Source: an uncultured virus (IMG/VR IMGVR_UViG_3300010338_001863)
Taxonomy: Duplodnaviria; Heunggongvirae; Uroviricota; Caudoviricetes
Virus record (IMG/VR): IMGVR_UViG_3300010338_001863
Reading direction: 5' to 3' (one strand)
Length of the DNA: 64,000 bases
The notes beneath the pieces were generated by a model. The model was not told the origin of the DNA. It made no database searches and saw only the letters and a list, made by a program, of their open reading frames with translations. The position numbers and the translations under genes are program-made. Below are positions 5,440 through 45,789 of the stretch, one piece after another (position 1 is the stretch's first letter; each line of letters opens with the position of its first letter).

Positions 5440-6425
5440 TGGGGATAAGTAAAATCTTTAATAAGGATATAAATTCTTTGTCTAAGATAATGAATATAAG
5501 TAAGAATAGTTTAAGCAAATTATATGGGATTACTTTATCAGAACAAATATTAGAATTTGCTTTTACTAATTCGACTTGGTATCCGCCTCAATATATTTAT
5601 TGGGATAGTTTAAATTCTGTATTGTGGGCTTCACAAGGGTTTTCTACTTCTGCGACTATGTTAAAAATAAATCCTAATACTATGACTTTAATATCAAGTG
5701 GAACATTTGATACTGGAACTTCAAGTTGGGGTATAACCAATAAGAGTATAAGAAATAATGGATATATTTATTTTGGAGTCCCTGGAAATTCGTGTGGAAG
5801 ATTTAATGTTAATACATTAGTAAGTCAAGAAACAAGTTGGTTTAATACTCCTAACGGAACCTTGAATTTAGGCTCAGATTGGTGGGTTGCAGCTAGTAGT
5901 TTATTTAGAATAAATCCTGATACATTGGCTAATAAAAATACTTATGAGATAGATGTTTATGGAGGTGGTATTTTAACTGACGGTGCTTATATTTATATGA
6001 TAAGGTCTAGTGGAAGATACGAATGTTATAAAATAAGTCCGTCGAATGGCAGTATAGTAGCAACTTATACTATGCCGTCAACAATAGTTGAGAGTGTTCA
6101 AGGAAGTTGTTTTACTCTTGATAGCAATGGATTTTTATGGTTGGTGTTCAATAATGGAACTATATCAAAAGTTAATACAAGTAATATGTCTCAGGTTAAT
6201 AATTATAGCGTGTCTGGATGTAAAGGGATAAATATAGTCGGGAATTATGCTTATATAGTGGCTGGAACTAAAGTTTTAAAGTATACAATATCTCCAAATT
6301 TTTCATATGTATCAGAGTGGAATTATGGAGTTAATTTAGTTTCTATTCAAAATAATGGACAATATATTTTCGTCGTATCAGATGATGGGACTAATAAAAA
6401 GATAATTAGAAAAAATATGTTTTAG
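5439..6425 (+). CDS. putative beta-propeller virion protein
   Basis: Beta-rich repeats (KINPNT, RINPDT, KISPSN; DSNGFLW); translationally coupled to the upstream gene. Confidence 0.5.
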   Translation: MGISKIFNKDINSLSKIMNISKNSLSKLYGITLSEQILEFAFTNSTWYPPQYIYWDSLNSVLWASQGFSTSATMLKINPNTMTLISSGTFDTGTSSWGITNKSIRNNGYIYFGVPGNSCGRFNVNTLVSQETSWFNTPNGTLNLGSDWWVAASSLFRINPDTLANKNTYEIDVYGGGILTDGAYIYMIRSSGRYECYKISPSNGSIVATYTMPSTIVESVQGSCFTLDSNGFLWLVFNNGTISKVNTSNMSQVNNYSVSGCKGINIVGNYAYIVAGTKVLKYTISPNFSYVSEWNYGVNLVSIQNNGQYIFVVSDDGTNKKIIRKNMF

Positions 6426-6433
6426 GAGGTCTA

Positions 6434-6886
6434 ATGAAAATAAAGGTTAAGGCAAATGGAAGAATAGAAACAGTAGTTAGGGATAATAATATAGAACTAG
6501 GAAATGGGATAATAATAGAAGATAATGAAGATGTTATATTAAACCCAGATAAATATTTATACTTAAATGGCAATTTGATTTTAAGACCTTATGTTGTTAT
6601 TGAAACGGATAAAGTTGATACTAACGGCAATGGAATACCTGATTCGGATTTAGAACATAATTTAACTATAAAATTTTATAATTCAGACGGTAGTATAGAC
6701 GAAAGTATAAATGGTAATTATATTTTGAGAATTTTCTATGGTCAGAATTCATTTAATGATTATAATATAAATATAATTAACGGAATAGGTTCTTATAATT
6801 TAACTAAAAATTTTATTGGGATTGCGTATGTTTGTGTTGTTAATTTTGATGGATATATCAACAGTTTAGTAATTGAATTTATATAA
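6434..6886 (+). CDS. hypothetical protein
   Basis: 150-aa ORF with AGGAGG RBS. Confidence 0.6.
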   Translation: MKIKVKANGRIETVVRDNNIELGNGIIIEDNEDVILNPDKYLYLNGNLILRPYVVIETDKVDTNGNGIPDSDLEHNLTIKFYNSDGSIDESINGNYILRIFYGQNSFNDYNINIINGIGSYNLTKNFIGIAYVCVVNFDGYINSLVIEFI

Positions 6887-6896
6887 GGAGACAAAA

Positions 6897-7181
6897 ATGA
6901 GACTAAAGAAGGAATTTAAAGATTTCGATAATAGAGAAATAGAAATAAAGCCTGCCCAAGAAGGGTTTATAGTTAGATATGTAGGCGATGTGGAAACTGT
7001 CGAAGGAATAGAACATTTAAACAAATATACGGTATTTAAAAATAATATTAATGATATAAAAGATTTATTATATGAAATAATAGAATATCTCGAAATAAGC
7101 AATGATCATATAGTAGAAATAAAAATCGATGAAGAGGTATATGATAATGATAATAAAGTACGAAATAGAACAAAAAAATGA
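6897..7181 (+). CDS. hypothetical protein
   Basis: AAGGAG RBS before ATG 6897. Confidence 0.6.
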   Translation: MRLKKEFKDFDNREIEIKPAQEGFIVRYVGDVETVEGIEHLNKYTVFKNNINDIKDLLYEIIEYLEISNDHIVEIKIDEEVYDNDNKVRNRTKK

Positions 7182-7329
7182 TTCGGTATTATTACGTAGG
7201 ATAGAGGATGATAAAATGATAGATGAAATAGAACTCCCAGTTTCTTGCTTTAATTTAATAAAATCATTATTTTTTGATACATATACCGAAATAGTATTAT
7301 TAAAAAGAAAAGATGAGACCAATAGATAA
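7129..7329 (+). CDS. hypothetical protein (start uncertain)
   Basis: Short ORF tiling between its neighbours. Confidence 0.45.
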   Translation: MKRYMIMIIKYEIEQKNDSVLLRRIEDDKMIDEIELPVSCFNLIKSLFFDTYTEIVLLKRKDETNR

Positions 7330-7498
7330 TATTAAAGATTTAAGGTTTTATGAAGATATTAATGGATATAGACTTGAATATATTACTAGTTTCTCTAAAA
7401 AATATATTTTTTATTTTAGCACTTTAGATGAAGCAATATCTTCTTTAAAGGAGTTAATAAATGAAAACGATTATTCAAAAACTCAATTCCTTAATTAG
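7313..7498 (+). CDS. hypothetical protein
   Basis: Short ORF tiling between its neighbours. Confidence 0.45.
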   Translation: MRPIDNIKDLRFYEDINGYRLEYITSFSKKYIFYFSTLDEAISSLKELINENDYSKTQFLN

Positions 7499-7730
7499 TC
7501 ATCATTTTAAGGATTTAAAAAGTATTAGGATATCTATGATTTGGATATACACTATAACGTATATATTTTTAATAATTTATTCTACCTTAAAATATGAATC
7601 TGTAGCTTCTACGGCTATAACTTCTACCGCTACCTTAGTAGGTATAATATTTTCTGGATATATATTTTCTAAAACTTTTAAAAAGGACCAAGCAAATGAA
7701 CAGAATACTGACAATAGTAATATTAATTAA
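7461..7730 (+). CDS. putative holin-like membrane protein
   Basis: 89 aa, two hydrophobic segments, charged C-terminal tail; AAGGAG RBS. Confidence 0.5.
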   Translation: MKTIIQKLNSLISHHFKDLKSIRISMIWIYTITYIFLIIYSTLKYESVASTAITSTATLVGIIFSGYIFSKTFKKDQANEQNTDNSNIN

Positions 7731-8226
7731 TATTGCAATATCTTTAGTTTTGTATAATTTATATAATAAACAAAGAGATATTATAGATACTTATGAATTT
7801 GGATCCAAGTTATTGGAGAAAGGGATAAATAAAAAGATAAAGATAAAAGGGAATAAGGTTACCGTATTGTATAAAGATAAAGAGATAGTTAAAGAAAAAA
7901 TAGTATATGTCCCAAAAGAGGGAACTATTACAATAATAGAAAAAGATAATGGATCTGTGGAGACGCAAATTAAAAATAAGGGGTTTACTTTAAGATATGG
8001 GTTTGGAATAGGATTCCAAGATAAACTTTATCCACAATTAGATTTAAAATTTTATTATTTTAATCAATATAGCCTAAATACTTTTATTTATCAGAAAGGT
8101 GCGGGGATATCTATATCTAGACACTTAGATGATTGGATTGGGGAAAATTTTTCTAATTCTGAGTTATTTTTGGGATATAATATTATAAACAAAAAATTTA
8201 TGGTTGGCATTCGAAGCAATTTTTAA
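7696..8226 (+). CDS. membrane-anchored protein (possible spanin-like/outer-membrane lysis accessory)
   Basis: N-terminal TM helix, beta-strand-rich C-terminus ending in F; follows the holin-like gene. Confidence 0.4.
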   Translation: MNRILTIVILINIAISLVLYNLYNKQRDIIDTYEFGSKLLEKGINKKIKIKGNKVTVLYKDKEIVKEKIVYVPKEGTITIIEKDNGSVETQIKNKGFTLRYGFGIGFQDKLYPQLDLKFYYFNQYSLNTFIYQKGAGISISRHLDDWIGENFSNSELFLGYNIINKKFMVGIRSNF

Positions 8227-8235
8227 GGAGGCGGA

Positions 8236-9210
8236 ATGCGAATAATTGATAAGCATATAACATTAAAAACTAATTCTGGTCTTAAAGAATATTCTATAGT
8301 TCCTATTGGAGATATTCATTTAAATAGTATATCATTCGATTATTCTGCTTGGGAAAATTTTTTGGAAAGAATAAAAGAAATTCCGAATCCTCTTTTTATA
8401 CTTTTGGGAGACATAACTGATGAAGACCGCCCTTCTACTAGAGATAGAAGAAAAATGATGTTTTTGGATAGGACTGATTCTTATAAACAATCTGATAAAA
8501 AATATATAACAGATTTTATAAAAGAGACGGCTCCTTGGTTATCTTTTTTAAATGAAGAAAATTGTCTTGGTATAATGGATGGAGATCATTATAGGATGTT
8601 TAGTAATGGCAAAACTTCCACAGAATTGTTGTGTAAATTTCTCAATGTCCCATATCTTGGGAGTGGTCAAGCTATTATAAGAGTTGTTTTTAAAATCCCG
8701 AATTCTAATTCTTCTAGAGTTTTTAATATACATGCGAGACATGGACGTGGATTTAATTTGACTACCGGGGCTAAAATAAATGCAAACAAAAGATTTTTGG
8801 ATGCTTGGGAGGGGATAGATTTATTCGTGAAAGGACATTCTCATTCTTCGTGGGAAGATGAAGTGGTTAGAAATATATTTACAAAAGATGGTTTTTTGTA
8901 TGAAAAGAAGATTGGAACTATCAATTGTGGGAGTTTTAAAAAAACATTTATAAATGATTCTGATAAAGAGGAATTCCTCAAAAAAATTGAATCAAGAATA
9001 AGCTCAATAAGAGATAATAATGAAAAGATGAAAGAATTATTAAAATTTGCTGGCATAGAAGAACAAGAGGCTGATTATGCTGAACTTAGGGAATATCCTC
9101 CAGTAAATAAATCTTTAATATATATGAAATTAAGATTTGTAAAAACAAGAAAAATAAAAGGATATCCAGATGTTCATATAAATAGGGATATCGTAAAATT
9201 GGATTTATAA
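8236..9210 (+). CDS. calcineurin-like metallophosphoesterase
   Basis: GDIH, LGD, GDH, HARHG and GHSH motifs. Confidence 0.85.
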   Translation: MRIIDKHITLKTNSGLKEYSIVPIGDIHLNSISFDYSAWENFLERIKEIPNPLFILLGDITDEDRPSTRDRRKMMFLDRTDSYKQSDKKYITDFIKETAPWLSFLNEENCLGIMDGDHYRMFSNGKTSTELLCKFLNVPYLGSGQAIIRVVFKIPNSNSSRVFNIHARHGRGFNLTTGAKINANKRFLDAWEGIDLFVKGHSHSSWEDEVVRNIFTKDGFLYEKKIGTINCGSFKKTFINDSDKEEFLKKIESRISSIRDNNEKMKELLKFAGIEEQEADYAELREYPPVNKSLIYMKLRFVKTRKIKGYPDVHINRDIVKLDL

Positions 9211-10571
9211 TGGCAAATTATTTTAATTATATCCAACCAGACCAATATTTACAATTAAATAATGGAGATGTATTGGCTGGGGATATAATTGTTGATAAAT
9301 TAATAGTTCCATCTAATTGTACAGTTATTGTTAGACCTTATTGGGAAATAATAAATAATGCTGGAGTATTTCATAATACCACAAATGATCCTGGTGGGTA
9401 TGTAAATATAAAAGCTAATGAAATAATTATAGATGGTACTATAGATGCTTCTGGTTCAGGATATCCTGGTGGCGGAGGAGGAGAGGGGGGATGTGGAGCT
9501 GATGATAGGGAAAATAAATCGCCTAATCATAATGGATCTGGAGTAGGTATAGGTGGTCAAAATGGAACTTATTCTAATTTTGATGTTGTTAGAGGGTCTT
9601 TTGAGTCTGCTGCTGGAGGTAATGGTGGGAAAGGGATGTCTAAGAATGGTTTTGATATAAATGGCGGGATGGGAGGGGCGAGAACTTCACAATATGGGCA
9701 AGGTAAAGCCGGAGGCAATGGGGATGATGGTATAGGAAATATTAATGATGAATTAAATATAAATTGTTATATGGGATCTGGTGGCGGTGGGGGAGGGGGA
9801 GCTTCTGGTGGCGGAGGGAATCAGGCAGATCATAAATGTGGCGGTGGCGGTGGAGGCGGAGGTGGTGGAGGCAATGGTGGCGGTATAATTAGAATTTTTG
9901 CTTTCAAAAAATTTTTATTAAGTTTAAGCGGGAAAATAGTATCTAATGGTGGTAGTGGATATGATGGTGAAAATGGATACCATGGTGGTGTTATAAGTAG
10001 CAATACTTCTATGCCTGGTTATTCTGGTAGGATAATATTAAATTGTTATGGTACTAATAAGAATTTTTTTGAGACAGCTTTCCGTAATACTCAAATAAAA
10101 TATTTTAATTGGGATAATAAGATATATCCATATGAAAGTATGGGACCTGGAGGAAGGGGAGGCTATGCTGGGAATAGCAATAAAAATGGAGTTGGTGGTT
10201 CTTATGGATTAATGGAGAATTATGAAGTATATAATCCTGGATTATCTGGGGCTGGAGGTGTGGGTGGTATGGGTGGTGGAGGGGCAGGAGGGGCTATAAT
10301 ATTATGTTTAGGTTTAGATTATAATTTAAATGAGAATAAATTTAAAGGATCTTGGAGAGGGCATAAGATAATCAAAAGATTTATTGTTAATGGCAGTTTA
10401 TCTTGTTTAGGTAAAAAAAATGATACTTCGAATAAAACTAAATATCTTACTAATATAAATGGTGGAACTATTAAGGTTTTTTATATAAATGAAAATAGGG
10501 ATTTTAATTATTCCAAGTCTAATTGTAAATTATTCATAGAAAAGGAGTTTAATAATATAGTTTTAATTTAA
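9210..10571 (+). CDS. glycine-rich virion protein
   Basis: Long GGGGG tracts and GGGAGG.I motifs typical of Gly-rich tail proteins. Confidence 0.7.
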   Translation: MANYFNYIQPDQYLQLNNGDVLAGDIIVDKLIVPSNCTVIVRPYWEIINNAGVFHNTTNDPGGYVNIKANEIIIDGTIDASGSGYPGGGGGEGGCGADDRENKSPNHNGSGVGIGGQNGTYSNFDVVRGSFESAAGGNGGKGMSKNGFDINGGMGGARTSQYGQGKAGGNGDDGIGNINDELNINCYMGSGGGGGGGASGGGGNQADHKCGGGGGGGGGGGNGGGIIRIFAFKKFLLSLSGKIVSNGGSGYDGENGYHGGVISSNTSMPGYSGRIILNCYGTNKNFFETAFRNTQIKYFNWDNKIYPYESMGPGGRGGYAGNSNKNGVGGSYGLMENYEVYNPGLSGAGGVGGMGGGGAGGAIILCLGLDYNLNENKFKGSWRGHKIIKRFIVNGSLSCLGKKNDTSNKTKYLTNINGGTIKVFYINENRDFNYSKSNCKLFIEKEFNNIVLI

Positions 10572-16563: not shown

Positions 16564-19500
16564 ATGGAACAATATATTGATAAGGAAAATGAGTTATCTA
16601 AGTTAGCTAATCAATGGAAAAAAGATAGAAAATGGGAAAATATATCGATAGAAGAACTCCCTGATAAAGAATATGTTGTATCTTTAAAAATAGATGGGGA
16701 GTTAACAGCTTTTGAATATAAAAATGGGGATATTACATATTCTTCCAGACATGGTAAAATAAGGAAAAATTTACCATTTGATAAAGAATTAATTGAGTCA
16801 TTTAGGAAATACAAAAAAGTTATTGGCTTTGGGGAATTATATGCTGTTGATAAGAATGGATCTATACTCCCTTACACCCAAAGCATGAGTATATTGAGAA
16901 AACCTAATGAAGAAAATATAAATCAAATCAGATTCAAAATATTTGATATATATCAAATAAATGATAAGAAAATTGAAATGCCATATCTTAAAAGAGTTTC
17001 TTTGATAAAAAAAATTTTAAATAAAAAATTTGCTATTAATGCTATAAAATCAAGCAAAAATAAAATATCGGAAATATTTGATAAATATGTTAAATCTGGA
17101 AAATATGAGGGCTTGGTTATTTGGGATGACCAAAAGACGTATAAAATAAAAGAGTTTATTAATCTAGATGCTGTTGTGATATTTGTAGAAAAGTCCGATA
17201 AGCATCCAGATAGAATGGGAGCGCTTGGGCTTGCCTTGCTTGATAATAATAAATTTTATTATATAGGGAATGTTGGAACAGGGTTTACTGAAGACCAGAG
17301 GATTAAATGGTTGAGATATGCGTTAAAAAATAAAATAAAAGAAGATAATGGTAAAATATTTATAAGCCCTAAAATAATAGTAGAAGTTAATGCAAAAACT
17401 TTGAATTTTGGGACTAATATAATATATAACAAAAAGTATGATGTTATTGGACATTCCCAATTTGGCAGTTTAAGAGAACCTAAGTTTATAAGAATTAGAA
17501 AAGACAAAACAATATCTGATGATAATATCGGATTATCCCAAATTAAAAATTTCGTCAAAAGATCATTGTTTGATTATAAAAAAATATCTAATATTAATAA
17601 TAATTGGTTTATGTGTAATACTTTTAAAAAAATAGCTATTTCTTTGAATCAAATAGACATAGAAATTCCTCAAGATTTGAGTCAAGGGCATAAAATAGAA
17701 AAAATATTTAATATTGTATATATGGACCCTACATCTAAATTAGATAATCAAAAATTAGAATTTAAAAATTTAGAAGAATTTATAAATAAGTTTTTAATGG
17801 AATATAAAGGCAATAAATATCTAAATATTAAAAAAATGAAAATGATCACTGGAGATTATTTAGGGGTTATTAATAAATTTTACGAGAATCTTATCGAATA
17901 TGGCGCAATAAATATTAGAAATTCTATAATTAATTTAACTAGGAAAACAGAAAATAAGCCAAAATTAATTAATGTAAAATCTTTTGATGAATTAAAACAG
18001 TTGTTAGGTTTGCAACAAAATAAAGATATAAAAATAGAAAAACATTATGAAAAAATTGCTGCAAAACAAATAGGAAATATTTCATATGTTCTTTATAAAG
18101 CTTTAAGTCCTTTTGGGATTAAAAACTTGGCAAATAAAGGAGTATCTACTTGGTGCGTAAATAGTATAGAATATGCCAAAAGTTATTGGGATGCTAATGA
18201 AACAAAACAAAATGGCTTTTGGTATATATTTAGGAATGGGAAGCCATTTTTTTCAATAGGTGGGAATGATGGGATAAGCTCCATATTTAATGTATCATTG
18301 TCTTTGTATTCTATACACATTTATGAACCAGATTATCTAATATTAAAAGAATGGCAGAATATTTATAATTATCCATTAAAAGAACAGAAAGTTTTAAATG
18401 ATTTAGAATTCAATGAGAAAATAAAAAAAATAATTGAAAATATCAATTTAAAAGAATTTATCCCAGATTCAGATTATGAGTTCATTTTTAATTATTCGGA
18501 ATATTTTAAAGATAAGATAGACATTAATAAATTTTTAGAATATATTTTGGATATTAAAAAAAAGATTTTTTTGCAAAATTCGATTATTTTAGAGAAAAGC
18601 GACCTGCTATTAAATACAGCTAAATTTATTGTAAGAAGTCCTTTTGAAAAAAATCCGCAAATAAATAAAGATTTGTTGGAACGAATAGAAGAGATCTTGT
18701 CTTCCGATTATGAAAATTCAGTAGACTATTTAAGAACAATCGTAAAGGGATATAGTGAAAACTATAAATCATACATGCTGAAATTATTGAAGAATATATA
18801 TGAAAGTATTTCCAGTAAAGATGCTAATTCTGTAGATATCGAGGAAGGAAAACTCTCTAATATTATTGATTTATTTTATGATTCTAAACATGAGATAACA
18901 AACGATGAAAGGAAATATTTTGATTTACTAATTGAAAAAGTCCCTTATGTTTTTTTATTGGCATATGATAAATTAAAAGATATAGGGATAAATTATGAGA
19001 AAGATAAATTGTTTTCTGCGGTAGTTAATAATCCTATATATTCTTTTAAGTATGCAAAAGGCTTAGGTTTTACTGATGTCTCATTTAAAATTTTAGAATC
19101 TATATCTAAAAATGATATCTTGTCCTATAGATATGCTTTACACTTAAAGGGGAAAAAGGTTCCAGTAATAATTGAAAATGGGATAGCCAAGTCTCCTCGT
19201 CTTAGTTTTTTATATGCTTATAGAGTATTGAATTTCCAAAATGTCCCTCCAATAATAATAGACTCTATTGCAAAAGATTATAATGTTTCAATTTTATATG
19301 CTATTATAAACAAAGATAATATCCCCGGTCAGATAAAAAGGAAAATAATGTTAGAATCTGGCATTGATATTGAAAAGAATAAAAATAATTTTGAAAATTT
19401 TGTTTTTAGTTGTGCTTTAGGAAGCTCGGAACGGGCTTTTGAATTTGCAAAATCTCATAAATTTAAAGACATCCCATTAGAAATAATTAAAAAGATATCG

Positions 19501-21153
19501 GAATCTCCTTATTATTCTTGGGGATATGCCAGGGCCATAGGGTATCAGGGAGTTCCAAAAGAAATAATAGAAGGGATATCAAAAGATAATCATTTCTCTT
19601 TTCTTTATACAACAGAAGTAGATCCCCAAAATGTTCCAGAAGTTATATTTCTTTCTGCATTAAAAGACTCTAAAGATAATAGTATGGATTTTAAAATAAA
19701 AAATGCTTTAAGATTTATTAATGAAAATAGGTTAGATTTATTAAAAGAAGTCAATATTAAAAAATCGGATATCGAACCTTATTTAGGGTCAAACCCTAAT
19801 AAAGAAAATATATTAAAACATTTAGAATCGAGCAGTGAATGTTTTATAGCAAAAGAAGGCTTAAGATATAATTGGGGTTATGATATTGATGAAAAAGTTT
19901 ACGGCGATAATCGTGAAGCGCATGATAAGAATAGTTTTTTATTTAAAAAGGCTGCATTTGAAACTAATTCACTCCAATTAAGAATAGAAGGACAACTAAA
20001 AGATGATATAATAAGTTTTGCTAAAAGGAATTTTTTGCAAAAGTATTTATATTATAATACTAATTTATATATACTTGGAAGAGTATATAACCCTCATATA
20101 ATATTGATGTATTTTAAAAAAGATATATTTAAAGAGATAGTAAGACATTTAAAAGAAAAAGGTGTAGAATATATAGAATTTACATTAGGGAATATAAAAA
20201 AGTTTTCTTCAGATAAGGATGTTTTTTATATAGAAGTAAGAAGCGAGCAATTAGATAATTTAGTTAATGAACTTGCTGAAAGGTTTGACGAGCAGCAGCC
20301 ATTCAAATTCTTAGCACATATAACATTGGCATATGTTAAAAATGGAACACACGACTTCCTTTTAAATAATGCCCATTTCCAAGGGATCAAATATAAGACT
20401 TCAATTATAGAAGTTAGCTATTATGACAACAATAAAGGTGGAGAATATTATAATTTAAAGAATAATGATACTGGTAAGGTTGTTGATTTTTTGTATAAGC
20501 ATAATATAGATGTATCTAAAATAAAACCTGGGAATGTCGGTTTTGACTTCGATTATACGCTAACAATGAACCCTAACCAGTTCAAAAAAATCATAGATCA
20601 TATACATAGCAATGGACATAAGGTTTTCATAATAACTGGTAGGGGGCCATCTTTAACTAGCTATATAAATGAATTTTTAAATAAGAATAATATTAATGTA
20701 GATGGAGTATATAATTTTGAAAAAGAATTAACGGATGAGGATTTTGTTAACCCAGAAACTAAAAAACAAATTGCAAAATTTAAAAAAGATAAAATAAAAG
20801 AATTGGAGATATCTACTTTCTTTGATGATGATTTCTTTATTATATCCAACTTGCCTAATAATATAGATAAATATTTTGTCCCAGCTGGGGTTCAAAAGGT
20901 TAATAATGGGAAATTTATATACCCAGAAAAATCGCATAATAAATTCGAGCAAATTATAAATAAACTACTTTATGTAGCAAATAAATATGGTTATAAGATT
21001 TATGCTGCTGGTGGATATGTTAGGGATTTAATAATGGATAGAGATTCTAAAGATTTGGATATAATAGTTGTTAAAGATTCCGAGGGAGTTAATGCGCCGA
21101 TAGAGTTTGCTAAAAAAGTTAAGGAAGAATTTGGAGGTAATATATATGAATAA
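16564..21153 (+). CDS. multidomain protein A: ATP-dependent DNA ligase + unknown/helical-repeat domain + 2H phosphoesterase + HAD phosphatase + N-terminal fragment of CCA-adding enzyme
   Basis: KIDGE, EGLV, VGTGF, LREPKF.RIR.DK (ligase); PHIIL/AHITLAY (2H); FDFDYTL..ITGR..FFDD (HAD); YAAGGYVRDL..KDLDI (class II NTase motif A). Confidence 0.85.
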   Translation: MEQYIDKENELSKLANQWKKDRKWENISIEELPDKEYVVSLKIDGELTAFEYKNGDITYSSRHGKIRKNLPFDKELIESFRKYKKVIGFGELYAVDKNGSILPYTQSMSILRKPNEENINQIRFKIFDIYQINDKKIEMPYLKRVSLIKKILNKKFAINAIKSSKNKISEIFDKYVKSGKYEGLVIWDDQKTYKIKEFINLDAVVIFVEKSDKHPDRMGALGLALLDNNKFYYIGNVGTGFTEDQRIKWLRYALKNKIKEDNGKIFISPKIIVEVNAKTLNFGTNIIYNKKYDVIGHSQFGSLREPKFIRIRKDKTISDDNIGLSQIKNFVKRSLFDYKKISNINNNWFMCNTFKKIAISLNQIDIEIPQDLSQGHKIEKIFNIVYMDPTSKLDNQKLEFKNLEEFINKFLMEYKGNKYLNIKKMKMITGDYLGVINKFYENLIEYGAINIRNSIINLTRKTENKPKLINVKSFDELKQLLGLQQNKDIKIEKHYEKIAAKQIGNISYVLYKALSPFGIKNLANKGVSTWCVNSIEYAKSYWDANETKQNGFWYIFRNGKPFFSIGGNDGISSIFNVSLSLYSIHIYEPDYLILKEWQNIYNYPLKEQKVLNDLEFNEKIKKIIENINLKEFIPDSDYEFIFNYSEYFKDKIDINKFLEYILDIKKKIFLQNSIILEKSDLLLNTAKFIVRSPFEKNPQINKDLLERIEEILSSDYENSVDYLRTIVKGYSENYKSYMLKLLKNIYESISSKDANSVDIEEGKLSNIIDLFYDSKHEITNDERKYFDLLIEKVPYVFLLAYDKLKDIGINYEKDKLFSAVVNNPIYSFKYAKGLGFTDVSFKILESISKNDILSYRYALHLKGKKVPVIIENGIAKSPRLSFLYAYRVLNFQNVPPIIIDSIAKDYNVSILYAIINKDNIPGQIKRKIMLESGIDIEKNKNNFENFVFSCALGSSERAFEFAKSHKFKDIPLEIIKKISESPYYSWGYARAIGYQGVPKEIIEGISKDNHFSFLYTTEVDPQNVPEVIFLSALKDSKDNSMDFKIKNALRFINENRLDLLKEVNIKKSDIEPYLGSNPNKENILKHLESSSECFIAKEGLRYNWGYDIDEKVYGDNREAHDKNSFLFKKAAFETNSLQLRIEGQLKDDIISFAKRNFLQKYLYYNTNLYILGRVYNPHIILMYFKKDIFKEIVRHLKEKGVEYIEFTLGNIKKFSSDKDVFYIEVRSEQLDNLVNELAERFDEQQPFKFLAHITLAYVKNGTHDFLLNNAHFQGIKYKTSIIEVSYYDNNKGGEYYNLKNNDTGKVVDFLYKHNIDVSKIKPGNVGFDFDYTLTMNPNQFKKIIDHIHSNGHKVFIITGRGPSLTSYINEFLNKNNINVDGVYNFEKELTDEDFVNPETKKQIAKFKKDKIKELEISTFFDDDFFIISNLPNNIDKYFVPAGVQKVNNGKFIYPEKSHNKFEQIINKLLYVANKYGYKIYAAGGYVRDLIMDRDSKDLDIIVVKDSEGVNAPIEFAKKVKEEFGGNIYE

Positions 21154-24100
21154 TTGGTTCATTAAACAAGCAGATTTAAATTATAGGAAGCCTAAAATAT
21201 TAGAATTTTTAAAAGGGAAAGGTATCCCCGAAGAAAAGGCATCTGAAATGATAGATACATTTGGGAAAGCAGATCCTACAAAAGATACTACTGCTGAATA
21301 TATTAACTGGATAATTAGGATGGTTTTAACAAATAAAATGAAAGAAGAGGATATAGATAAGGTTAGGGAATATCTAGAAGTATTTTCTAAACTAAAGAAA
21401 TCAAACAAGTTAAAGGAATTAAAGGTTAGCAGTGATATCAATTCGTATAAAGATGTAGTAGATTTATATAAAATTGTAAAAGATTATTTAGGAGGTAAAC
21501 CAGTAACAAAACAGGAATCAGAGAGAAACACTTCTTATGGGTTAAATAAAATATATGATAAAAATGGGATAAAAGTATATAAAATAACAGAGCCGGGAGT
21601 AGCTTCTTATATAGCTAAGGATACTAATTGGTGTGTTAAATCACATGATACTGCAAAGTATTATCTTTCTTTTGGGCCTTTATATTTATTAGAAACTATT
21701 GGAGAAAGATATTTAATATCTGAGGGAACTGACCAATTTAAAAATGTAGATGATGAAGAGGTTGAAGAAGATTTTTTTAATGAAATGTTGCCAGTACTAA
21801 GTGAATTAAATATAATTTTAAGGCCTAATTATTTGATTGAAAATAATTTGGATGAGAAATACTATCCAGGCCAAAGAGAAGAAATAAAAAAATATGCTGA
21901 TATTAATAAGGCTTTATATGATAAAGAATATGAAAAAGCAAAAGGGATCATTGGTCAATTAAAAGATGAAAATAGAATAAAAAGTTATAAATCAATATTG
22001 CCAAATAAAATGATATACGATGGGGATATAGAAGGAGGGATAAAGCTTGCAAAAGAGTTTGGGTCTTTGGATGAACAAATGATTGTAAATGCACATAGAA
22101 CCCAAGTACTAAATGATGAGCCTTTAACATATCATATAAAACCCAAAAAAAGTTTAAGACTTGCAAAAGAAGATTTGTTGTATTTGGATAAAATGATTGA
22201 TTCTTATGCTGGTACAGAGATTAAAGATGGAGGATTTTTGGGATTGTTTGGTTCTAGATATCCTTCAAAAGAAGAATATTTAAAAGTTTTTGATGATTCT
22301 ATAGATAATTATGTTAATACAAATTCGCGAAATGAACTAGAAGATTTTATTGAAAAACACAAAGAGATAATAACCCCTGAAATTATGGATAAAGTTGTGG
22401 ATTGTTATATTAGAAAGGGATTCAATTTGTATTATTTAATCCGATATAACCCTGAATACTTTACTCCAGAAATTATGAATAAAATTGTGGATGGTTATAT
22501 TAGAAAGGGATTCAATTTGGATGATTTAATCCAACATAACCCTGAATACTTTACTCCAGAAATTATGAATAAAGTTGTGGATTATTATATTAGAGAGGGA
22601 TTCAATTTGAATTATTTAATCCAATATAACCCTGAATACTTTACTCCAGAAATTATGAATAAAGTTGTGGATTATTATATTAGAGAGGGATTCAATTTGG
22701 ATTATTTAATCCGATATAAACCTAAATACTTTACTCCAGAAATTATGAATAAAGTTGTGGATTATTATATTAAAAAATGGTTTTCTGTTTATAATTTAAT
22801 CCGATATGAACCTAAATGCTTTACCCCTGAAATTATGGATAAAGTTCTGGATTATTATATTAGAGAGGGATTCAATTTGGATGATTTAATCCAACATAAA
22901 CCTGAATACTTTACTCCAGAAATTATGAATAAAGTTGTGGATTATTATATTAGAAAGGGATTCAATTTGGATGATTTAATCCAACGTAAACCTGAATACT
23001 TTACTCCAGAAATTATGAATAAAGTTGTGGATTATTATATTAGAAAGGGATTCAAATTTGATTCTTTAATCCAACATAAACCTGAATATTTTACTCCAGA
23101 AATTATGAATAAAGTTGTGGATTATTATATTAGAGAGGGAATTAAATTGGATTCTTTAATCAAATATAAACCTGAATACTTTACCCCTGAAATTATGGAT
23201 AAAGTTCTGGATTATTATATTAGAGAGGGATTCAATTTGGATGATTTAATCCAACGTAAACCTGAATACTTTACTCCAGAAATTATGAATAAAGTTGTGG
23301 ATTATTATATTAAAACTGGATTTCATTTTAATTATTTGATTCCCTATAAACCTGAATACTTTACTCCAGAAATTATGAATAAAGTTGTGGATTATTATAT
23401 TAGAAAGGGATTTGAATTGGATTATTTAATCCGATATGAACCTAAATGCTTTACTCCAGAAATTATGAATAAAGTTGTGGATTATTATATTAGAAAGGGA
23501 TTTGAATTGGATTATTTAATCCGATATAACCCTAAATGCTTTACTCCAGAAATTATGAATAAAGTTGTGGATTATTATATTAGAGAGGGATTCAAATTTG
23601 ATTCTTTAATCCAACATAAACCTGAATATTTTACTCATGAAAATTTAGAAAATTTAATTCTTAAAAATATATTTAACACTAAATATTATAATGCTTTTAA
23701 AAGATTTGTAGATATAAAAAAAATAATATCCAAATTTATTAAAAATAATATCAACAATACTGATGGGATAAAAAAGGTTTTGAAATTGTATTCAATAAAT
23801 AAAGACATAGCAAGAGAAATTTTAAAAGAAAATAATATATATAGTGAAGATTTTTTGGATTCTTTATATAAAGAATCACTATTGAATCCTAAATGGTTTA
23901 TAGTTAAGACAGCAGAAAAAGTTTCATATATAGATTACGCTAAATTTGGAACAGTTAAGCTTATTGTAGATGATTTTGAGATAGACCTTGTCCCCCCAAG
24001 AAAAGAGGTATACCAAGACCAGGAATCAAGGAATCCCACTGTTTCTTATGGAACTCTACAAGACGATGCATTAAGAAGAGATTTCACTATAAATTCTATG

Positions 24101-26692
24101 TATTTAGACCTATCTTCTAATAGGATTATAGATCCGACTGGGAATGGGATAAATGACATTAAAAATAAAATAATAAGAACTACTGATGAAAATCCAGATA
24201 AAATATTTTCTGAAGATCCTTTAAGAATGCTTAGAGCTATTAGACAAGCTTATTCTTTTGGATTCTCTATACCTGATTATGTAAAAGAGTCAATTAAAAG
24301 AAATGCTTATAGACTTTCAATTTTAACTGAAGAAAGATTTAGAGATGAGTTTGTTAAAATATTGCAATTAAGAAATGCAAAACAGGCTATAAAAGATTTA
24401 AAAGAATTGGGATTATTGAATTATTTTTTACCAGAATTAGAACAGACATTCGGGGTATCGCATGATTCTCCATATCATAAAGAAACGATAGAAGAACATA
24501 TTTTAGACACTGTAGAAAAATATGGAGGGAATTTGGCAGATAAACTGGTTGCTTTATTCCATGATATAGGGAAGCCTGCAGCCAAAAAACTTGCCGATGG
24601 TATCGCTCATTTTTATGATCACGAGAAAATAAGCGCGGAATTAGCGGAAAAGATAATGAGGAAATTAAAATTCCCATCTGATTTAATAAAAGAGGTGTCT
24701 AATAGGATTAGACTTCATATGAGGCCACATCAATATTCTAAAGATTGGAACGATAAAACTATAAGGAAATTTATTAAAGATATGGGGGAATATTTGGATA
24801 AAGTAATAGAATTCGCAGAAATAGATACTAAATCTAGCCAAAGTGAAAAGACAGAAGAAAATCTAAGATTATTGAATGAATTTAAAGATAGGATTAACAA
24901 ACTTAAAAATGATGTTAATAAGGCAAGTCAGAAACTTTATAATGGTAATGAGTTGATGCAATTATTGAATTTAAAACCAGGGCCGGATCTTAAAAAAGTT
25001 ATTGAATATTTATCAGAATTGCAATTAGAAAATCCAAATATAACAAAAGATGAAGCTTTAGTAAAATTAAAAGAATTCGTTGGAAATGGGTTTATGCCAA
25101 AAGGGGAGCGTATGAAATGGTTTAAAAAAACATCTAATATTGATATTAAAAAAATGCTTTTTAAATTTATAAAAGACAATTTTGGAAGCATAGATAAAGC
25201 TTTATTAGAATTTAATGAATATAAAGAAAATGTTAACAAAAAGGCTATTGATAACAAAAAAATAATGATGTTAATTTATTTATTATCTCTTGTTTTTGGA
25301 GTTCCTCAAAAAGATATATTGGCTATGTCCTCAGATGAAATAAGAGCTAAAATGGAATCGATAACAAAAGAAATGAACAAATTTAGCGATGAAACTGAAA
25401 AGAAGTTTACAGCTAAAGAAATAAAATCCATGAAATTTGAAGATTTTGATAAATTATCTGTAGGTGAAGCATGTTCTATTGCGCAATTTATTTTGGATAC
25501 AAATTCTAGTGGATTTGAAATTAGTGATGGTAGTAAGATATATGGTGGATATAAAGAAATAAAAGAAGATTATTATGGGTCAAATATTGATTCAAATAGA
25601 AGGTATGAAGGTGATAAGGAAATAATAACATATAAAGGTATCGTGAATAAAAAAGTATTTAAATTAGAAGTTGTTCGTCAATCCGATAAAACTCTTAAAG
25701 AAATTAAATACGATAATAATAATATAGATGTAAATAATTTAACTTTTGAATCTTTTGAGGATATTTCTGAAGAAAAAATGAAGGAAATCATAGAAAAGTA
25801 TGGCCCTGGAACGCATAAATTAAAAGATAAAAGTGTAATGGAAATATCTAAACCAAGACCAACTACGGAGTATTTTAAGGGAGTAGAGGTTTTGTATAAT
25901 AATGGAGATAAAAGAATAATTATAGATTTTAAGATACGCCCAGGATTAGGACATAAGATAATAATAGACAAAAAAGGATCCATGAATAAGAAATCAAGCT
26001 TCCCCTCCAATCCTCTTAAAAAAGTAGGCGATACTGGTTTAACAGAAAAAGAAGTATGGGAATATTATGACAAAATGAAATATAAGATATTTCCATATCT
26101 TAAAGGACATAATGTCCTTTTAAAGATATTTACTGATGATGGGGTTATTATAAAAAGGAAGGATTCAGACGGAAAGTATCTTCAAATTAATACTATAGAA
26201 GATTATGATAGGTGGAATGGTGGAAGACAGGAATTTCATATAACGCTTAATTCTGAAGAATCAGATATTGCTTGGATAGACATAGACCCCAAAATTGATA
26301 AATCTGTAGATAAGAAAAAGATAAAAAACACCTGTAAGGAATTAATAAAAAAAATATTAAAAAATATATATAATTTGACAAAAGATGATAAATCTATATT
26401 TTCTCAATTATTAAATGTTCAGGTGTTCTATTCTGGCGGAAGAGGGTATCATATATTTTTAAAATTTAAACAAAAGATGGATATAAATAAAGTTAAAGAA
26501 ACTCTCAAAAAATGCTTTGAAAATAATATTATTCCTAATTTTGATAATGTTAAAATGGGAATAACTAAACCTGGAGAGATAAGATTGGATCTTACAACTC
26601 TTCATAATTTGGGTAGCATAAGAGTTCCATATAGTTACAATCTGTCTACTGGGAAGAGATCCAAGTTATTATTTAAAAAAAATATAGTTTAA
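21146..26692 (+). CDS. multidomain protein B: unknown N-domain + 14x30-aa repeats + CCA-adding enzyme body/HD domain + unknown domain + LigD-type AEP primase-polymerase
   Basis: GGAGG at 21133-21137 supports ATG 21146; FGT, RKE, DALRRDFTINSM, EDPLRMLRA, ERFRDE, LFHDIGKP, HEKISA, HMRPH; WIDIDP, SGGRGYH, RVPYS. Confidence 0.85.
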   Translation: MNNWFIKQADLNYRKPKILEFLKGKGIPEEKASEMIDTFGKADPTKDTTAEYINWIIRMVLTNKMKEEDIDKVREYLEVFSKLKKSNKLKELKVSSDINSYKDVVDLYKIVKDYLGGKPVTKQESERNTSYGLNKIYDKNGIKVYKITEPGVASYIAKDTNWCVKSHDTAKYYLSFGPLYLLETIGERYLISEGTDQFKNVDDEEVEEDFFNEMLPVLSELNIILRPNYLIENNLDEKYYPGQREEIKKYADINKALYDKEYEKAKGIIGQLKDENRIKSYKSILPNKMIYDGDIEGGIKLAKEFGSLDEQMIVNAHRTQVLNDEPLTYHIKPKKSLRLAKEDLLYLDKMIDSYAGTEIKDGGFLGLFGSRYPSKEEYLKVFDDSIDNYVNTNSRNELEDFIEKHKEIITPEIMDKVVDCYIRKGFNLYYLIRYNPEYFTPEIMNKIVDGYIRKGFNLDDLIQHNPEYFTPEIMNKVVDYYIREGFNLNYLIQYNPEYFTPEIMNKVVDYYIREGFNLDYLIRYKPKYFTPEIMNKVVDYYIKKWFSVYNLIRYEPKCFTPEIMDKVLDYYIREGFNLDDLIQHKPEYFTPEIMNKVVDYYIRKGFNLDDLIQRKPEYFTPEIMNKVVDYYIRKGFKFDSLIQHKPEYFTPEIMNKVVDYYIREGIKLDSLIKYKPEYFTPEIMDKVLDYYIREGFNLDDLIQRKPEYFTPEIMNKVVDYYIKTGFHFNYLIPYKPEYFTPEIMNKVVDYYIRKGFELDYLIRYEPKCFTPEIMNKVVDYYIRKGFELDYLIRYNPKCFTPEIMNKVVDYYIREGFKFDSLIQHKPEYFTHENLENLILKNIFNTKYYNAFKRFVDIKKIISKFIKNNINNTDGIKKVLKLYSINKDIAREILKENNIYSEDFLDSLYKESLLNPKWFIVKTAEKVSYIDYAKFGTVKLIVDDFEIDLVPPRKEVYQDQESRNPTVSYGTLQDDALRRDFTINSMYLDLSSNRIIDPTGNGINDIKNKIIRTTDENPDKIFSEDPLRMLRAIRQAYSFGFSIPDYVKESIKRNAYRLSILTEERFRDEFVKILQLRNAKQAIKDLKELGLLNYFLPELEQTFGVSHDSPYHKETIEEHILDTVEKYGGNLADKLVALFHDIGKPAAKKLADGIAHFYDHEKISAELAEKIMRKLKFPSDLIKEVSNRIRLHMRPHQYSKDWNDKTIRKFIKDMGEYLDKVIEFAEIDTKSSQSEKTEENLRLLNEFKDRINKLKNDVNKASQKLYNGNELMQLLNLKPGPDLKKVIEYLSELQLENPNITKDEALVKLKEFVGNGFMPKGERMKWFKKTSNIDIKKMLFKFIKDNFGSIDKALLEFNEYKENVNKKAIDNKKIMMLIYLLSLVFGVPQKDILAMSSDEIRAKMESITKEMNKFSDETEKKFTAKEIKSMKFEDFDKLSVGEACSIAQFILDTNSSGFEISDGSKIYGGYKEIKEDYYGSNIDSNRRYEGDKEIITYKGIVNKKVFKLEVVRQSDKTLKEIKYDNNNIDVNNLTFESFEDISEEKMKEIIEKYGPGTHKLKDKSVMEISKPRPTTEYFKGVEVLYNNGDKRIIIDFKIRPGLGHKIIIDKKGSMNKKSSFPSNPLKKVGDTGLTEKEVWEYYDKMKYKIFPYLKGHNVLLKIFTDDGVIIKRKDSDGKYLQINTIEDYDRWNGGRQEFHITLNSEESDIAWIDIDPKIDKSVDKKKIKNTCKELIKKILKNIYNLTKDDKSIFSQLLNVQVFYSGGRGYHIFLKFKQKMDINKVKETLKKCFENNIIPNFDNVKMGITKPGEIRLDLTTLHNLGSIRVPYSYNLSTGKRSKLLFKKNIV
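22370..23629 (+). repeat. 14 tandem 90-bp coding repeats (30-aa unit FTPEIMNKVVDYYIRxGFxxxxLIxxxPxY)
   Basis: AATTATG(A/G)ATAAA recurs every 90 bp from 22381 to 23551. Confidence 0.95.
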
Positions 26693-26709
26693 TGTAAGGA
26701 GATTTATTT

Positions 26710-28593
26710 ATGAAGAATCCTAATAAATGGCACATAGAATATTGGAAGAAAAATAAAACTAATGATGTTTTAGAACCTTTTGTCGTTGTTGATGAAGATG
26801 GGAATAAAGTTGAATCTTTTGAGGAAAAAAATGGAGCAAAGGATTATATAGAAAGAAAGAAAAAAGAATATACTGAGTATTTGGAATACTTATCAATTAA
26901 AGAAATGGAAGAAGAGAGGGAAATTGATGCTTATGATGAGAACGAGGAAATAACTACAAAATCTTCTTTTAATGTGATATCGTATATAGTTTATATTAAA
27001 AATCACAAAAATAGCGAAGGAGAATTGGCTCCTTGGGTTATCAAATCCCATGAAGATGGGCATATAATTTCAAGTCATAAAACAAGAGCAGAAGCTAAAA
27101 AACATCTTAAAAGAATGCAATATTTTAAGCACAAAAAAGCTTTAATGGGTGATTTCGGGGTAAATATAAAAGATATAAATAACTTAGATTTGCAAGCTAT
27201 TAGAAAATCAATAATAGCCGAATATGATGCCGTAAATTTATATGAACAATTAGCTGAAAAAGTATCTGATGAACTAAAAGAAGTTTTTCTTGATATAGCT
27301 AATGAAGAGAAGGTTCATATAAAAGAATTTGAATATTTATTAAAAGAATTAGATCCAGAGCAGAATACCTCTGAAATAGAAGCTATTAAAGAAGTAAATA
27401 CTATTAAATCTGAAGCATCAAATAGAAAGCCATTAAAAGAAAGTATTGATTATGGAGAATTTAAGTTTGATCCTAATTCTACAAAAAACGAGGGCAGGTT
27501 TAGATTAAGAGACCCGAAAGAATTCAAAAAAGATACATTTAAAAGATGGACTTCTTGGGCCGGGATAGAGGCCCCAGAAGGAGTTTCTTTTATAGTTGGA
27601 GAATTAAAAAATGGCAAAAAGGCTTTGCAGGCTATTAGGTTTAATTTAGAGATGTGGGATGAAAATAAGGCTAAAGCTCTTTGGGATGACCTAAAGGATG
27701 AACCTGGGTTCCAAAAATATTGGGAATGGCCAAAAGAAAAAGTAGCTATAAGCTTTTATTGTCCGATGTTTAAAATAGCTAATTCTTATAATGAAAAGGT
27801 TGATATCATATATATGGATGATATCCCAGAAAGCTTTGAATATAAAGATATAGGCAAATATGTTATAGTTAATATGGATAAGTTTAATACTAAAGAAGCT
27901 ATATCAAAAAATGCCTCTTATATCAACCAATTCCTTGATTGGCTTAATTCTAACCTTGGGGATAGATTTATAGGGGTTATAAGTAAAATATCGTCTGTAA
28001 GCGATTTGGAGGCCCATATAAACAATATTAAAAAATATACTTTGTTTGATATAGAAAACCAGGACCTCTATACGCCAGAGGTATTAGAAAAGATAGAGGC
28101 TTCCAATAATTCTATTTTAAAGAAAGAATTAGATCATGGGGCTGTCCCTGGTAGGGTAGAATATGTGGATTTTGAGGTAAAAGACAAGAAAGATATAGAA
28201 AATTTGAAAGCTTATCTTGATACGATTGAACAAAGCGAGCCAAAGAATAAAGTAATAAATATAGAATACAGAGGTGTGGATAAGTCTATTTTAAATGATT
28301 TAAACAATATAATGAAGGATTATATTAATACTAATTATTATTCATTTAATAAAATGTATGGGCCTTCTCAGCCTACTGAAACTCCTATTAATGGAGATAA
28401 GCCCAGTACTCAAGAAATGGATGATTTTGAGGATTATAGGGATAATACTCCTAGGGAAGCTTTTGGGGAAGATTATATTACTACATTTTATCCTACAAGA
28501 CAGGATTACACAAATAGCGGTAAAACGGATGTAGATAGTGTGGTAGATAAATCAACTGATTATTCTTATTATAAAGAAGAAGATAGATTCTAA
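26710..28593 (+). CDS. multidomain protein C with ferritin-like (rubrerythrin/encapsulin-cargo type) domain
   Basis: AIRKSIIAEYDAVNLYEQ...DIANEEKVHIKEF (ExxAxxxY / EExxH); also HKTRAEAKKHLKRMQYFKH and NEGRFRLRDP..QAIRF modules resembling those of phage head-associated proteins. Confidence 0.7.
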   Translation: MKNPNKWHIEYWKKNKTNDVLEPFVVVDEDGNKVESFEEKNGAKDYIERKKKEYTEYLEYLSIKEMEEEREIDAYDENEEITTKSSFNVISYIVYIKNHKNSEGELAPWVIKSHEDGHIISSHKTRAEAKKHLKRMQYFKHKKALMGDFGVNIKDINNLDLQAIRKSIIAEYDAVNLYEQLAEKVSDELKEVFLDIANEEKVHIKEFEYLLKELDPEQNTSEIEAIKEVNTIKSEASNRKPLKESIDYGEFKFDPNSTKNEGRFRLRDPKEFKKDTFKRWTSWAGIEAPEGVSFIVGELKNGKKALQAIRFNLEMWDENKAKALWDDLKDEPGFQKYWEWPKEKVAISFYCPMFKIANSYNEKVDIIYMDDIPESFEYKDIGKYVIVNMDKFNTKEAISKNASYINQFLDWLNSNLGDRFIGVISKISSVSDLEAHINNIKKYTLFDIENQDLYTPEVLEKIEASNNSILKKELDHGAVPGRVEYVDFEVKDKKDIENLKAYLDTIEQSEPKNKVINIEYRGVDKSILNDLNNIMKDYINTNYYSFNKMYGPSQPTETPINGDKPSTQEMDDFEDYRDNTPREAFGEDYITTFYPTRQDYTNSGKTDVDSVVDKSTDYSYYKEEDRF

Positions 28594-44457: not shown

Positions 44458-44474
44458 TTGCCCCTCCTCTTTTT

Positions 44475-44891
44475 TCAGAACGAGAGAACTCTTCGCATCG
44501 ACTCAAACGCCCATGCGGCGATTCCGAATTGGGCTAAGACAGCGATTCCACCTGCGACAGCTGCCGACAGGGAAGAGACGTTTTCTAGGGCCAGGTTTAA
44601 GTTTGGGAAGGCCGACCCGCAACTTTTGCAGTGGATTCCAGAGTTCTTGGACAGCTTGCAAGCTGGACATCTTTCCTTTTTCCTGATGTGTGTCCCTATG
44701 AAGTATAGAGGCAGCCAGAATGAGAGCAGGAGGACGACGACTCCGAGTAGCATTTTTAGGAGTGCCAGTAATTCTCCCTCGCTGATCCTACCTATCGAGT
44801 GGGCGATCAGGATTAGGGAGGGTAGGACGCAAGCTCCTCCGACGAACCCGACGACTGCGAACTGAAGTGTGAGCGATGCTAACTTTTTCAT
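44475..44891 (-). CDS. membrane protein with CxxC pairs
   Basis: Hydrophobic helices, CPAC/CKSC; GGAGG RBS. Confidence 0.6.
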   Translation of the reverse strand: MKKLASLTLQFAVVGFVGGACVLPSLILIAHSIGRISEGELLALLKMLLGVVVLLLSFWLPLYFIGTHIRKKERCPACKLSKNSGIHCKSCGSAFPNLNLALENVSSLSAAVAGGIAVLAQFGIAAWAFESMRRVLSF

Positions 44892-45289: not shown

Positions 45290-45304
45290 AGTCTTTTACC
45301 TCCT

Positions 45305-45583: not shown

Positions 45584-45601
45584 AATCCATACCTCCTTTT
45601 A

Positions 45602-45630
45602 ATTGTATACCATTTATTCTAAATTGTCAA
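45602..45630 (-). promoter_or_regulatory. sigma70-type promoter
   Basis: TTGACA-17 nt-TACAAT. Confidence 0.7.
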
Positions 45631-45789
45631 TATATATGCCACAAAACTCATACACTTTATATAATGTACATAACCTCATTAACATAATAAATTAATACCT
45701 TATACTCATTAATCAGAAAGGAGAAACGTAAAAATAATAATAACCACCCTACCCTAAATCAAAATAATAGACTATATAAACCACAAATT

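Follow-up and report, generated by a model that had tools for sequence, protein, structure and literature searches.

A predicted CCA-adding enzyme divided between two giant multi-domain proteins of a phage

The stretch of DNA analysed here (hereafter the window) comprises 64,000 nucleotides of an uncultured virus of the Caudoviricetes (IMG/VR record IMGVR_UViG_3300010338_001863) and carries, in two slightly overlapping open reading frames (ORFs), the parts of what appears to be a single CCA-adding enzyme. ORF A (16564–21153, plus strand, 1529 amino acids (aa)) holds the start of the head domain of this enzyme and ORF B (21146–26692, plus strand, 1848 aa counted from its ATG) holds the remainder, the two pieces lying 2.8 kb apart and in different frames. 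Both ORFs were delimited from the ORF list and their Pfam matches. The cut class II head is one module in this pair of giant proteins, which are of the 'polyvalent' type and belong to a phage of ~125 kb (contig of 124,853 bases).

ORF A is a multi-domain phage protein in which a ligase (aa 35–315; Pfam RNA_ligase and DNA_ligase_A_C, the OB domain of ATP-dependent ligases) is followed by a variable middle module (aa ~335–1127, window 17566–19944), a 2H phosphoesterase (aa 1177–1263; Pfam 2_5_RNA_ligase2) and a HAD-like hydrolase (Pfam Hydrolase_3). The last 75 residues (aa 1455–1529, 20926–21150, plus strand), recognised by positions 1–40 of the Pfam family PF01743, form the N-terminal fragment of a class II tRNA nucleotidyltransferase head, hereafter the stub, with head residues ~1–70, that is, motif A (GG..RD..DxD) and the next helix. 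ORF B begins with an insert (residues 1–925: N-terminal tag, a domain that we call X, repeats and a tail) and continues with the C-fragment of the enzyme, a further module and a PrimPol-like domain. The C-fragment (ORF B aa 926–1320, 23921–25105, plus strand) is covered by positions 43–126 of PF01743, which give the rest of the head (aa 928–1011), and then by an RNA-binding domain (PF12627, E 2.8e-15), an HD domain (PF01966, E 4.4e-06) and a tail domain (PF13735, E 1.5e-08), all of them above the Pfam cut-offs. This order of head, RNA-binding, HD and tail domains is that of the class II CCA enzymes with an HD domain, which share with the window pieces the same domains and invariant residues. 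The divided enzyme may accordingly be classed, on its sequence, as a class II tRNA nucleotidyltransferase with an HD domain, presumably of the CCA-adding type; its nearest proteins are variously named 'poly(A) polymerase' or 'tRNA nucleotidyltransferase'.

Division of the enzyme over two genes had been proposed in a first-pass annotation of the sequence and is borne out by several searches. The two matches to PF01743 (PolyA_pol head) fall at ORF A aa 1479–1520 (positions 1–40) and ORF B aa 928–1011 (positions 43–126) and are exactly complementary, and PHROG 2244 (tRNA nucleotidyltransferase) is likewise matched in two parts, positions 3–32 in ORF A and 47–375 in ORF B. A tblastn search with an intact homologue (P0170) as query placed its residues 15–79 at 20941–21135 (frame +1) and its residues 70–468 at 23897–25081 (frame +2). 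Within the 64-kb window the enzyme is represented by these two pieces alone. The head domain, which is one continuous polypeptide in class II tRNA nucleotidyltransferases, is therefore discontinuous in the window. Alignment with 12 intact homologues showed that GGNIYE of ORF A and YAKFGT of ORF B follow each other in register, in agreement with the earlier claim that joining them gives a normal head: ORF A stops where the homologues show ...G-L-K-D-Y-V, and ORF B restarts with Y-A-K-F-G-T against F-E-E-F-G-T. No enzyme residue is lost at the cut, which in the alignment lies in the loop between the helix after motif A and the next beta-strand, and at most 4–5 residues overlap. A target duplication might explain this overlap (NIYE against SYID), as might chance in AT-rich DNA.

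The signals at the junction (21133–21153, plus strand) were read from the sequence. ORF A ends in ...YAAGGYVRDLIMDRDSKDLDIIVVKDSEGVNAPIEFAKKVKEEFGGNIYE (in a longer readout, ...KYGYKIYAAGGYVRDLIMDRDSKDLDIIVVKDSEGVNAPIEFAKKVKEEFGGNIYE), followed by a TAA stop at 21151–21153. The frame of ORF B is open from a TTG at 21107 and has its ATG at 21146–21148, which overlaps with the end of ORF A as ATGAATAA. A GGAGG at 21133–21137 lies 8 nucleotides before this ATG and, as noted in the first-pass annotation, belongs to the GGA GGT codons of a Gly-Gly pair of ORF A. This layout of GGAGG spacing and start/stop overlap fits coupled expression. The enzyme picks up again in ORF B at ...NPKWFIVKTAEKVSYIDYAKFGTVKL, residue ~926–928 from the ATG (~939–941 from the TTG), directly after a KWFIVKTA tag and close to the ~930 aa first reported. 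A promoter and terminator scan found no terminator-like site on the plus strand between ORF A and ORF B, and promoter-like sites numbered 76 against a mean of 95.8 in shuffled sequences, i.e. fewer than after shuffling.

An intein or intron, for which no features had been seen at first reading, was not found by domain and RNA family searches either. Pfam (E ≤ 0.01) returned no intein or Hint domain in ORF A or ORF B, a Pfam scan of both ORFs found no homing-endonuclease domain, and no match to HNH, GIY-YIG or LAGLIDADG was obtained in ORF B aa 1–925. No Rfam family, and hence no intron model, reached its gathering score in the 64-kb window. The residues at the junctions (...NIYE* and ...AEK/VSYID) do not combine a Cys, Ser or Thr nucleophile with an HN pair, and the DNA between the halves forms an open frame whose protein is conserved in relatives, which does not fit a group I or group II intron.

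Both halves are well preserved, as the first-pass annotation had stated for their catalytic motifs. The stub shares 55% identity with the beginning of intact homologues and keeps 6/6 family-invariant residues (G29, G30, R33, D34, D43 and D45, judged against 15 intact homologues). The C-fragment, 50–51% identical to intact homologues, keeps 38/38 invariant columns in the same comparison, among them R52, R53, D54, D99, P100, L101 and R102, and with them the RRD and DPLRMLRA motifs and the His and Asp of the HD domain. The third catalytic carboxylate presumably lies on the next strand, in the C-fragment. Prediction of a complex of the stub and the C-fragment, a check proposed with the first-pass annotation, docked the two chains with a score of 0.80 in each of three runs (best of three controls, 0.00), an outcome that the solved single-chain fold would lead one to expect; of 157 solved complexes 116 attain this mark, as do 2 of 215 mismatched pairs. 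At least 94% of contacts are common to the runs, the predicted local distance difference test (pLDDT) value of the partner is at least 86, and the stub sits where it does in the intact fold. Alignments of full-length homologues, made by us, were used for both chains. The prediction suggests that the pieces still fit the family fold and does not imply binding itself.

The insert has its own GGAGG and ATG and reads in frame into the downstream half of the enzyme. Its first part (21146–22378, plus strand), delimited from protein library matches and an AlphaFold2 (AF2) model, consists of the tag MNNWFIKQADL and domain X, which has a conserved core (aa ~30–225) with an invariant W-C and Y. X is matched by 1222 proteins of the library at E ≤ 0.001 and by 190 at E ≤ 1e-10, either stand-alone proteins of 250–450 residues or sections of giant proteins, and is thus a widespread phage domain. 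Some of the 21 X-domain proteins scanned also carry ART-PolyVal, PcfJ, DUF4116 or 2H/Acb1 domains; no Pfam family covers X itself in these 21 proteins or in the window insert. The model of X (pLDDT 88.6) had no match in the PDB at E ≤ 0.001 with Foldseek, and the best VIA-align match was a GNAT-like transacylase with Z 6.2 over 110 residues, a score in the range that the tool itself describes as common. In the atlas X has viral clusters without names as neighbours, PcfJ (0.89) being a lead only. The middle module of ORF A also has a weak X-like stretch (hhalign probability 86%, E 5e-6, 54 columns), which includes a WCV and is accompanied by repeats of about 30 residues. The second part of the insert (22379–23636, plus strand) is an array of 14 tandem repeats of 90 bp (30 aa; Tandem Repeats Finder: period 90, 14.0 copies, 89% matches), the copy number of which is evidently unstable, given a single copy in a close relative (P0011) and the breaks of other assemblies within the array. 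The third part (23637–23920, plus strand), delimited by alignment with P0011 and from the sequence, is a tail that ends in the tag NPKWFIVKTAEK (23888–23920) and is the last stretch that ORF B shares with P0011, the alignment running to ...KWFIVKTAEK.

Such tags recur at the module borders. A peptide of the form [N/K/D][N/K]W[F/L/I].K..[A/S] starts each module in ORFs A and B, and in the sequence the border tags lie at 17596–17640, 21149–21180, 23888–23920, 25112–25140 and 26710–26760 of the window and within 5567–9831 of a related locus (L001). The same tag forms the N-terminus of the gene after ORF B (MKNPNKWHIEYWKK) and of the stand-alone CCA proteins P0170 and P0171, and in L001 one ORF ends in ...KWLL*, overlapping the start of the next ORF, after which another NKWLKRSS occurs. 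Across families a tag at the N-terminus is not general (0/148 X proteins and 2/120 CCA proteins), and it is a lineage-specific peptide. BLAST carries the match of the C-fragment into KWFIVKTAEK, with 6/15 residues identical. We considered whether KWFIVKTAEK is a duplicated helix of the CCA enzyme and rejected this, as the tag also ends the module in a relative without the C-fragment and similar tags start other modules. Since the tags delimit the stretches in which the window and its relatives differ, we infer that whole modules were exchanged by recombination at or near them. At the protein level the tags may serve for cleavage or addressing, or may be no more than a linker helix. The first-pass annotation had raised the idea that the enzyme is activated by proteolytic maturation; the recurring 'KWF' border tags are all that speaks for it, and Pfam returned no protease or peptidase domain in ORF A or ORF B.

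Near-identical A- and B-type proteins occur on other contigs, with one residue difference each. A-type proteins that end in the same stub form two clusters (P0001, P0167 and P0168; P0002, P0160 and P0161), of which the second represents a sister lineage, A', with proteins of 968–969 aa and a different middle module of 230 residues. Its flanks resemble ORF A closely (ligase 83% and 2H/HAD part 97% identical), and its last 402 residues are those of ORF A with 10–11 differences, 0–1 of them within the 75-residue stub, and with the same end ...NIYE; in P0161 the stub is identical to that of the window (0/75 residues differ). Replacement of the middle module of ORF A in these three proteins is a second cassette exchange at the same locus. 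The corresponding B' proteins (P0011 and P0162, 799 aa) have an X domain 92% identical to that of ORF B and one repeat compared with 14. After ...KWFIVKTAEK they have 31 other residues and then the PrimPol-like domain (99% identical between ORF B and P0011; BLASTP, 232/234), and thus possess neither the C-fragment nor the module that follows it. P0161 and P0162 are each on a contig of 32,282 bases and are probably neighbours on one contig.

The nearest intact enzymes (P0004, P0169–P0171 and L001) are ~51–55% identical and all contiguous. P0004 and L001 each carry the intact enzyme as the final module of a 1100-residue protein with the order tag-X-repeats-tag-CCA, so that the kind of module that interrupts the enzyme in the window sits directly upstream of the intact enzyme in its nearest relatives. 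The distance of ~2.8 kb between the halves given by the first-pass annotation stands, whereas its description of the intervening coding sequence as unrelated calls for refinement. The head is contiguous in 82/82 other loci (80 further IMG/VR loci that carry a CCA-type gene, together with L001 and L002), and among the 83 the window alone is split; three single-protein scans of IMG/VR returned no loci closely related to the window. The comparison with related phages that had been proposed shows the split at the 5' junction in close relatives, no C-fragment in the sister B' proteins and a contiguous head in the 82 other loci.

The split is not an assembly artefact, because six proteins, from two clusters and on different contigs, show the same 5' junction and the 3' junction (23921) is bridged by contigs in 3/4 runs examined (X1, X4 and X5). 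The bridging contigs, of 17,355, 3,216 and 1,403 bases, come from three runs of three studies; these Logan contigs are from activated sludge, hot spring and sediment runs and differ from the window at 0, 10 and 4 positions over the aligned lengths. The comparison of runs by contigs covered 23640–27000, and among the matches listed, 17 runs from 10 studies contained part of the stretch, the best match possibly being the window's own source. The oil field run (X11) has three contigs that begin or end within 23895–23924, the 30 bases encoding KWFIVKTAEK, as would be expected if that sample contained both forms, one having the C-fragment and one lacking it. X11 keeps the C-fragment, and its contig departs from the window at 25104 into sequence reading ...NNLWFKKS; over 23895–25104 it shows 15 differences, 2 of them among those listed. 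The differences listed among runs include, for the catalytic part, at least a conservative T965S and a synonymous change at P1297, and for the PrimPol-like part 13 synonymous against 7 replacing changes (among the 40 of 48 differences listed). A misjoined module is accordingly the least credible explanation of the locus, even though a tandem repeat breaks assemblies and two proteins (P0163 and P0164) both begin inside the array. Two objections anticipated with the first-pass annotation can thus be set aside: a misassembly does not explain junctions that recur in independent metagenome assemblies, and close relatives do not carry an intact gene but are split at the same 5' junction, the nearest intact enzymes being only ~51–55% identical.

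From the sequence, insertion of the 925-residue module appears to have made the cut, leaving two ORFs with translational coupling signals. We tentatively favour the reading that the two halves constitute a working split enzyme, with a probability of roughly 0.45. This reading is favoured because the cut is clean and loss-free, 44/44 invariants are kept, start and stop are coupled and no terminator lies between the ORFs, because the arrangement persists across habitats and years with the C-fragment kept beside a swapped neighbour module (X11), and because other split phage enzymes, as described in parts of PMC2988022, do work. The polypeptides of ORF A and ORF B would be made from one transcript, and the stub at the end of A would complete the head beta-sheet inside B without a covalent bond. 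The active site would in this way be restored from the DxD of A and the third carboxylate, RRD and nucleotide-templating motif of B. Reassembly would tie the two giant proteins together, and the enzyme would repair the 3' ends of tRNAs next to the ligase, 2H and HAD-like domains of A, a combination of ligase, 2H, phosphatase-like and CCA functions that suggests repair of RNA, probably tRNA, ends. As to its origin, the tag-X-repeat-tag cassette may have landed inside the CCA module and not in front of it.

Several observations weigh against a working split enzyme, and some of them speak at the same time for a recent relic, in which the insertion inactivated the nucleotidyltransferase, the pieces are intact for want of time and by virtue of the PrimPol-like frame, and the C-fragment is heading for deletion, a step that the sister lineage would already have taken. 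The sister lineage keeps the stub unchanged while B' has no C-fragment; conservation of the stub is therefore no evidence of its use, and the C-fragment is dispensable. The split is rare and not an established design, since 0/82 other loci are split. Selection since the split is not measurable because the window-type variants are nearly identical, and the divergence among them is too low for a dead gene to have eroded. The PrimPol-like domain further downstream in any case requires the frame of ORF B to stay open through the C-fragment, docking may be hindered because the fragments form part of proteins of 1529 and 1848 residues, and the successful complex prediction would be expected from the likeness of the pieces to solved single-chain CCA enzymes (closest chains by sequence 3wfo_A, 9ns2_A, 6ibp_A, 1miv_A and 3h37_A). 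The contig branches of X11, exactly at 23895–23924, also fit the presence of both forms in one sample. A relic has, however, to account for a dead segment of 1.2 kb that spread to activated sludge, hot spring, sediment and oil field with very few changes, for 0/44 invariant residues changed, for a split point placed cleanly between secondary-structure elements and for other phage enzymes that are cut likewise and do work (again according to parts of PMC2988022). We regard it as a realistic possibility, somewhat less probable than a working enzyme.

The HD domains of bacterial CCA enzymes have phosphatase and phosphodiesterase activity. The C-fragment might thus act alone, its HD and tRNA-binding parts serving in RNA end-healing or tRNA binding after loss of the polymerase, with the stub left over as nothing but the ribosome-binding site of ORF B. 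The HD domain with its invariant His and Asp is kept, the adjoining ligase, 2H and HAD-like domains suggest RNA end repair, and the stub can occur without the C-fragment, as in the sister lineage; the residues of the head (RRD, DPLRMLRA) are nevertheless kept as fully as those of the HD domain, an argument of little weight at this low divergence, and we hold independent action of the C-fragment to be unlikely. A fusion of ORF A and ORF B by frameshift or transcriptional slippage near the A6 run at 21112–21117, which would yield one chain with a giant loop, draws on the frame of ORF B being open from 21107, 44 nucleotides before the ORF A stop, such that loss of one A from A6 would join the frames. 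There is, however, no recognisable +1 slippery site, a GGAGG at start-codon spacing (8 nucleotides) is the usual picture of coupled initiation, and A6 runs are common in DNA of 27% G+C, which makes fusion very improbable.

Genes in pieces are known from phages: nrdA of Aeromonas phage Aeh1 is split by mobE, a topoisomerase subunit gene of T4 by mobA, and gene 43 of phage 25 occurs as 43A/43B, the Aeh1 NrdA and phage 25 gp43A/B being split enzymes that work (as reported in parts of PMC2988022). The window locus belongs to this class and adds to it a new enzyme and an intruder of a new type. In the known cases treated in those parts of PMC2988022 the halves are kept apart by a free-standing gene for a homing endonuclease or by an untranslated spacer, whereas in the window a 925-residue non-endonuclease module intervenes, whose translation continues into the downstream half as a single protein; no free-standing endonuclease gene of the mobE/nrdA type separates the halves. 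Split inteins also bring together halves of one protein from two ORFs, as here, but they have Hint halves, whereas the N-fragment in the window ends exactly at the break in the enzyme, with no intein half. CCA building shared by two gene products is likewise known from the CC-adding and A-adding enzyme pairs, which, as described in parts of PMC7014341, are two complete paralogues, each with a whole active site; in the window one active site is spread over two polypeptides. The class II CCA enzymes examined are single chains, unlike the head in the window, which is divided after about 70 residues over two ORFs. In the literature outside subscription-only papers we found no natural two-piece CCA-adding enzyme; among the CCA-related papers listed, 'split' is used in other senses, such as for CC/A-adding enzyme pairs or for split tRNA genes.

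Polyvalent proteins of phages and conjugative elements are giant chains of 2–15 unrelated domains, including 2H, Pol-beta nucleotidyltransferase and PrimPol (Iyer et al. 2017, parts of PMC5512222). ORFs A and B share this multi-domain character, A combining ligase, X-like, 2H, HAD-like and stub modules and B combining X, repeats, CCA, the further module and the PrimPol-like domain, and some X-domain proteins carry ART-PolyVal and PcfJ domains. The locus also departs from what is described there: the term 'CCA' is absent from the main text of PMC5512222, its passages describe no domain split over two polyvalent proteins, and its 2H domains are reported never to have been seen alongside RNA ligases, in contrast to ORF A, in which a ligase and a 2H domain share one chain. 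A bolder extension of the working split enzyme would make the divided head a non-covalent clasp that switches CCA repair on only when A meets B and unites the ligase, 2H and phosphatase functions with those of CCA, HD and PrimPol in a single machine for RNA/DNA repair; the tags would mark the borders of module exchange, perhaps as cutting or addressing sites, and the locus would be a cassette-shuffling system for counter-defence enzymes. We consider this extension doubtful. Should the halves complement each other, the enzyme would be, as far as our searches show, the first natural two-piece class II CCA-adding enzyme; it would reveal a permissive site in a Pol-beta-type head and a genes-in-pieces case with a protein module as the intruder, and would show that multi-domain repair and counter-defence proteins of phages are rebuilt by module swaps at short conserved tags. 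If the locus is a relic, it is a commonplace instance of a gene caught decaying in a mosaic region of a phage.

The remainder of ORF B consists of the further module (25106–25987, plus strand), which starts with the tag MKWFKKTS, has no Pfam match, is lacking from P0011 in the alignment and is replaced by other sequence in run X11, and of the C-terminal PrimPol-like domain (25988–26692, plus strand), which resembles DNA_primase_S and LigD_Prim-Pol below the Pfam cut-offs. In the next gene (26710–28593, plus strand, 627 aa) a tag-like N-terminus precedes a rubrerythrin/ferritin-like domain (PF02915, E 6.9e-11). Elsewhere the window is phage DNA that encodes tail-fibre and virion proteins, a DnaB-type helicase, a primase, a UvsX-like recombinase, an SbcD-like nuclease and endonuclease VII. 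Between 45290 and 46968 there is no ORF of at least 100 aa, no tRNA and no Rfam match, and over 44000–50000 the G+C content rises from about 0.27 to 0.40–0.44. Among the phage replication genes, a 356-aa ORF (41006–42076, minus strand) matches PHROG 506 'transposase' (E 1.2e-135) and has the look of an insertion sequence.

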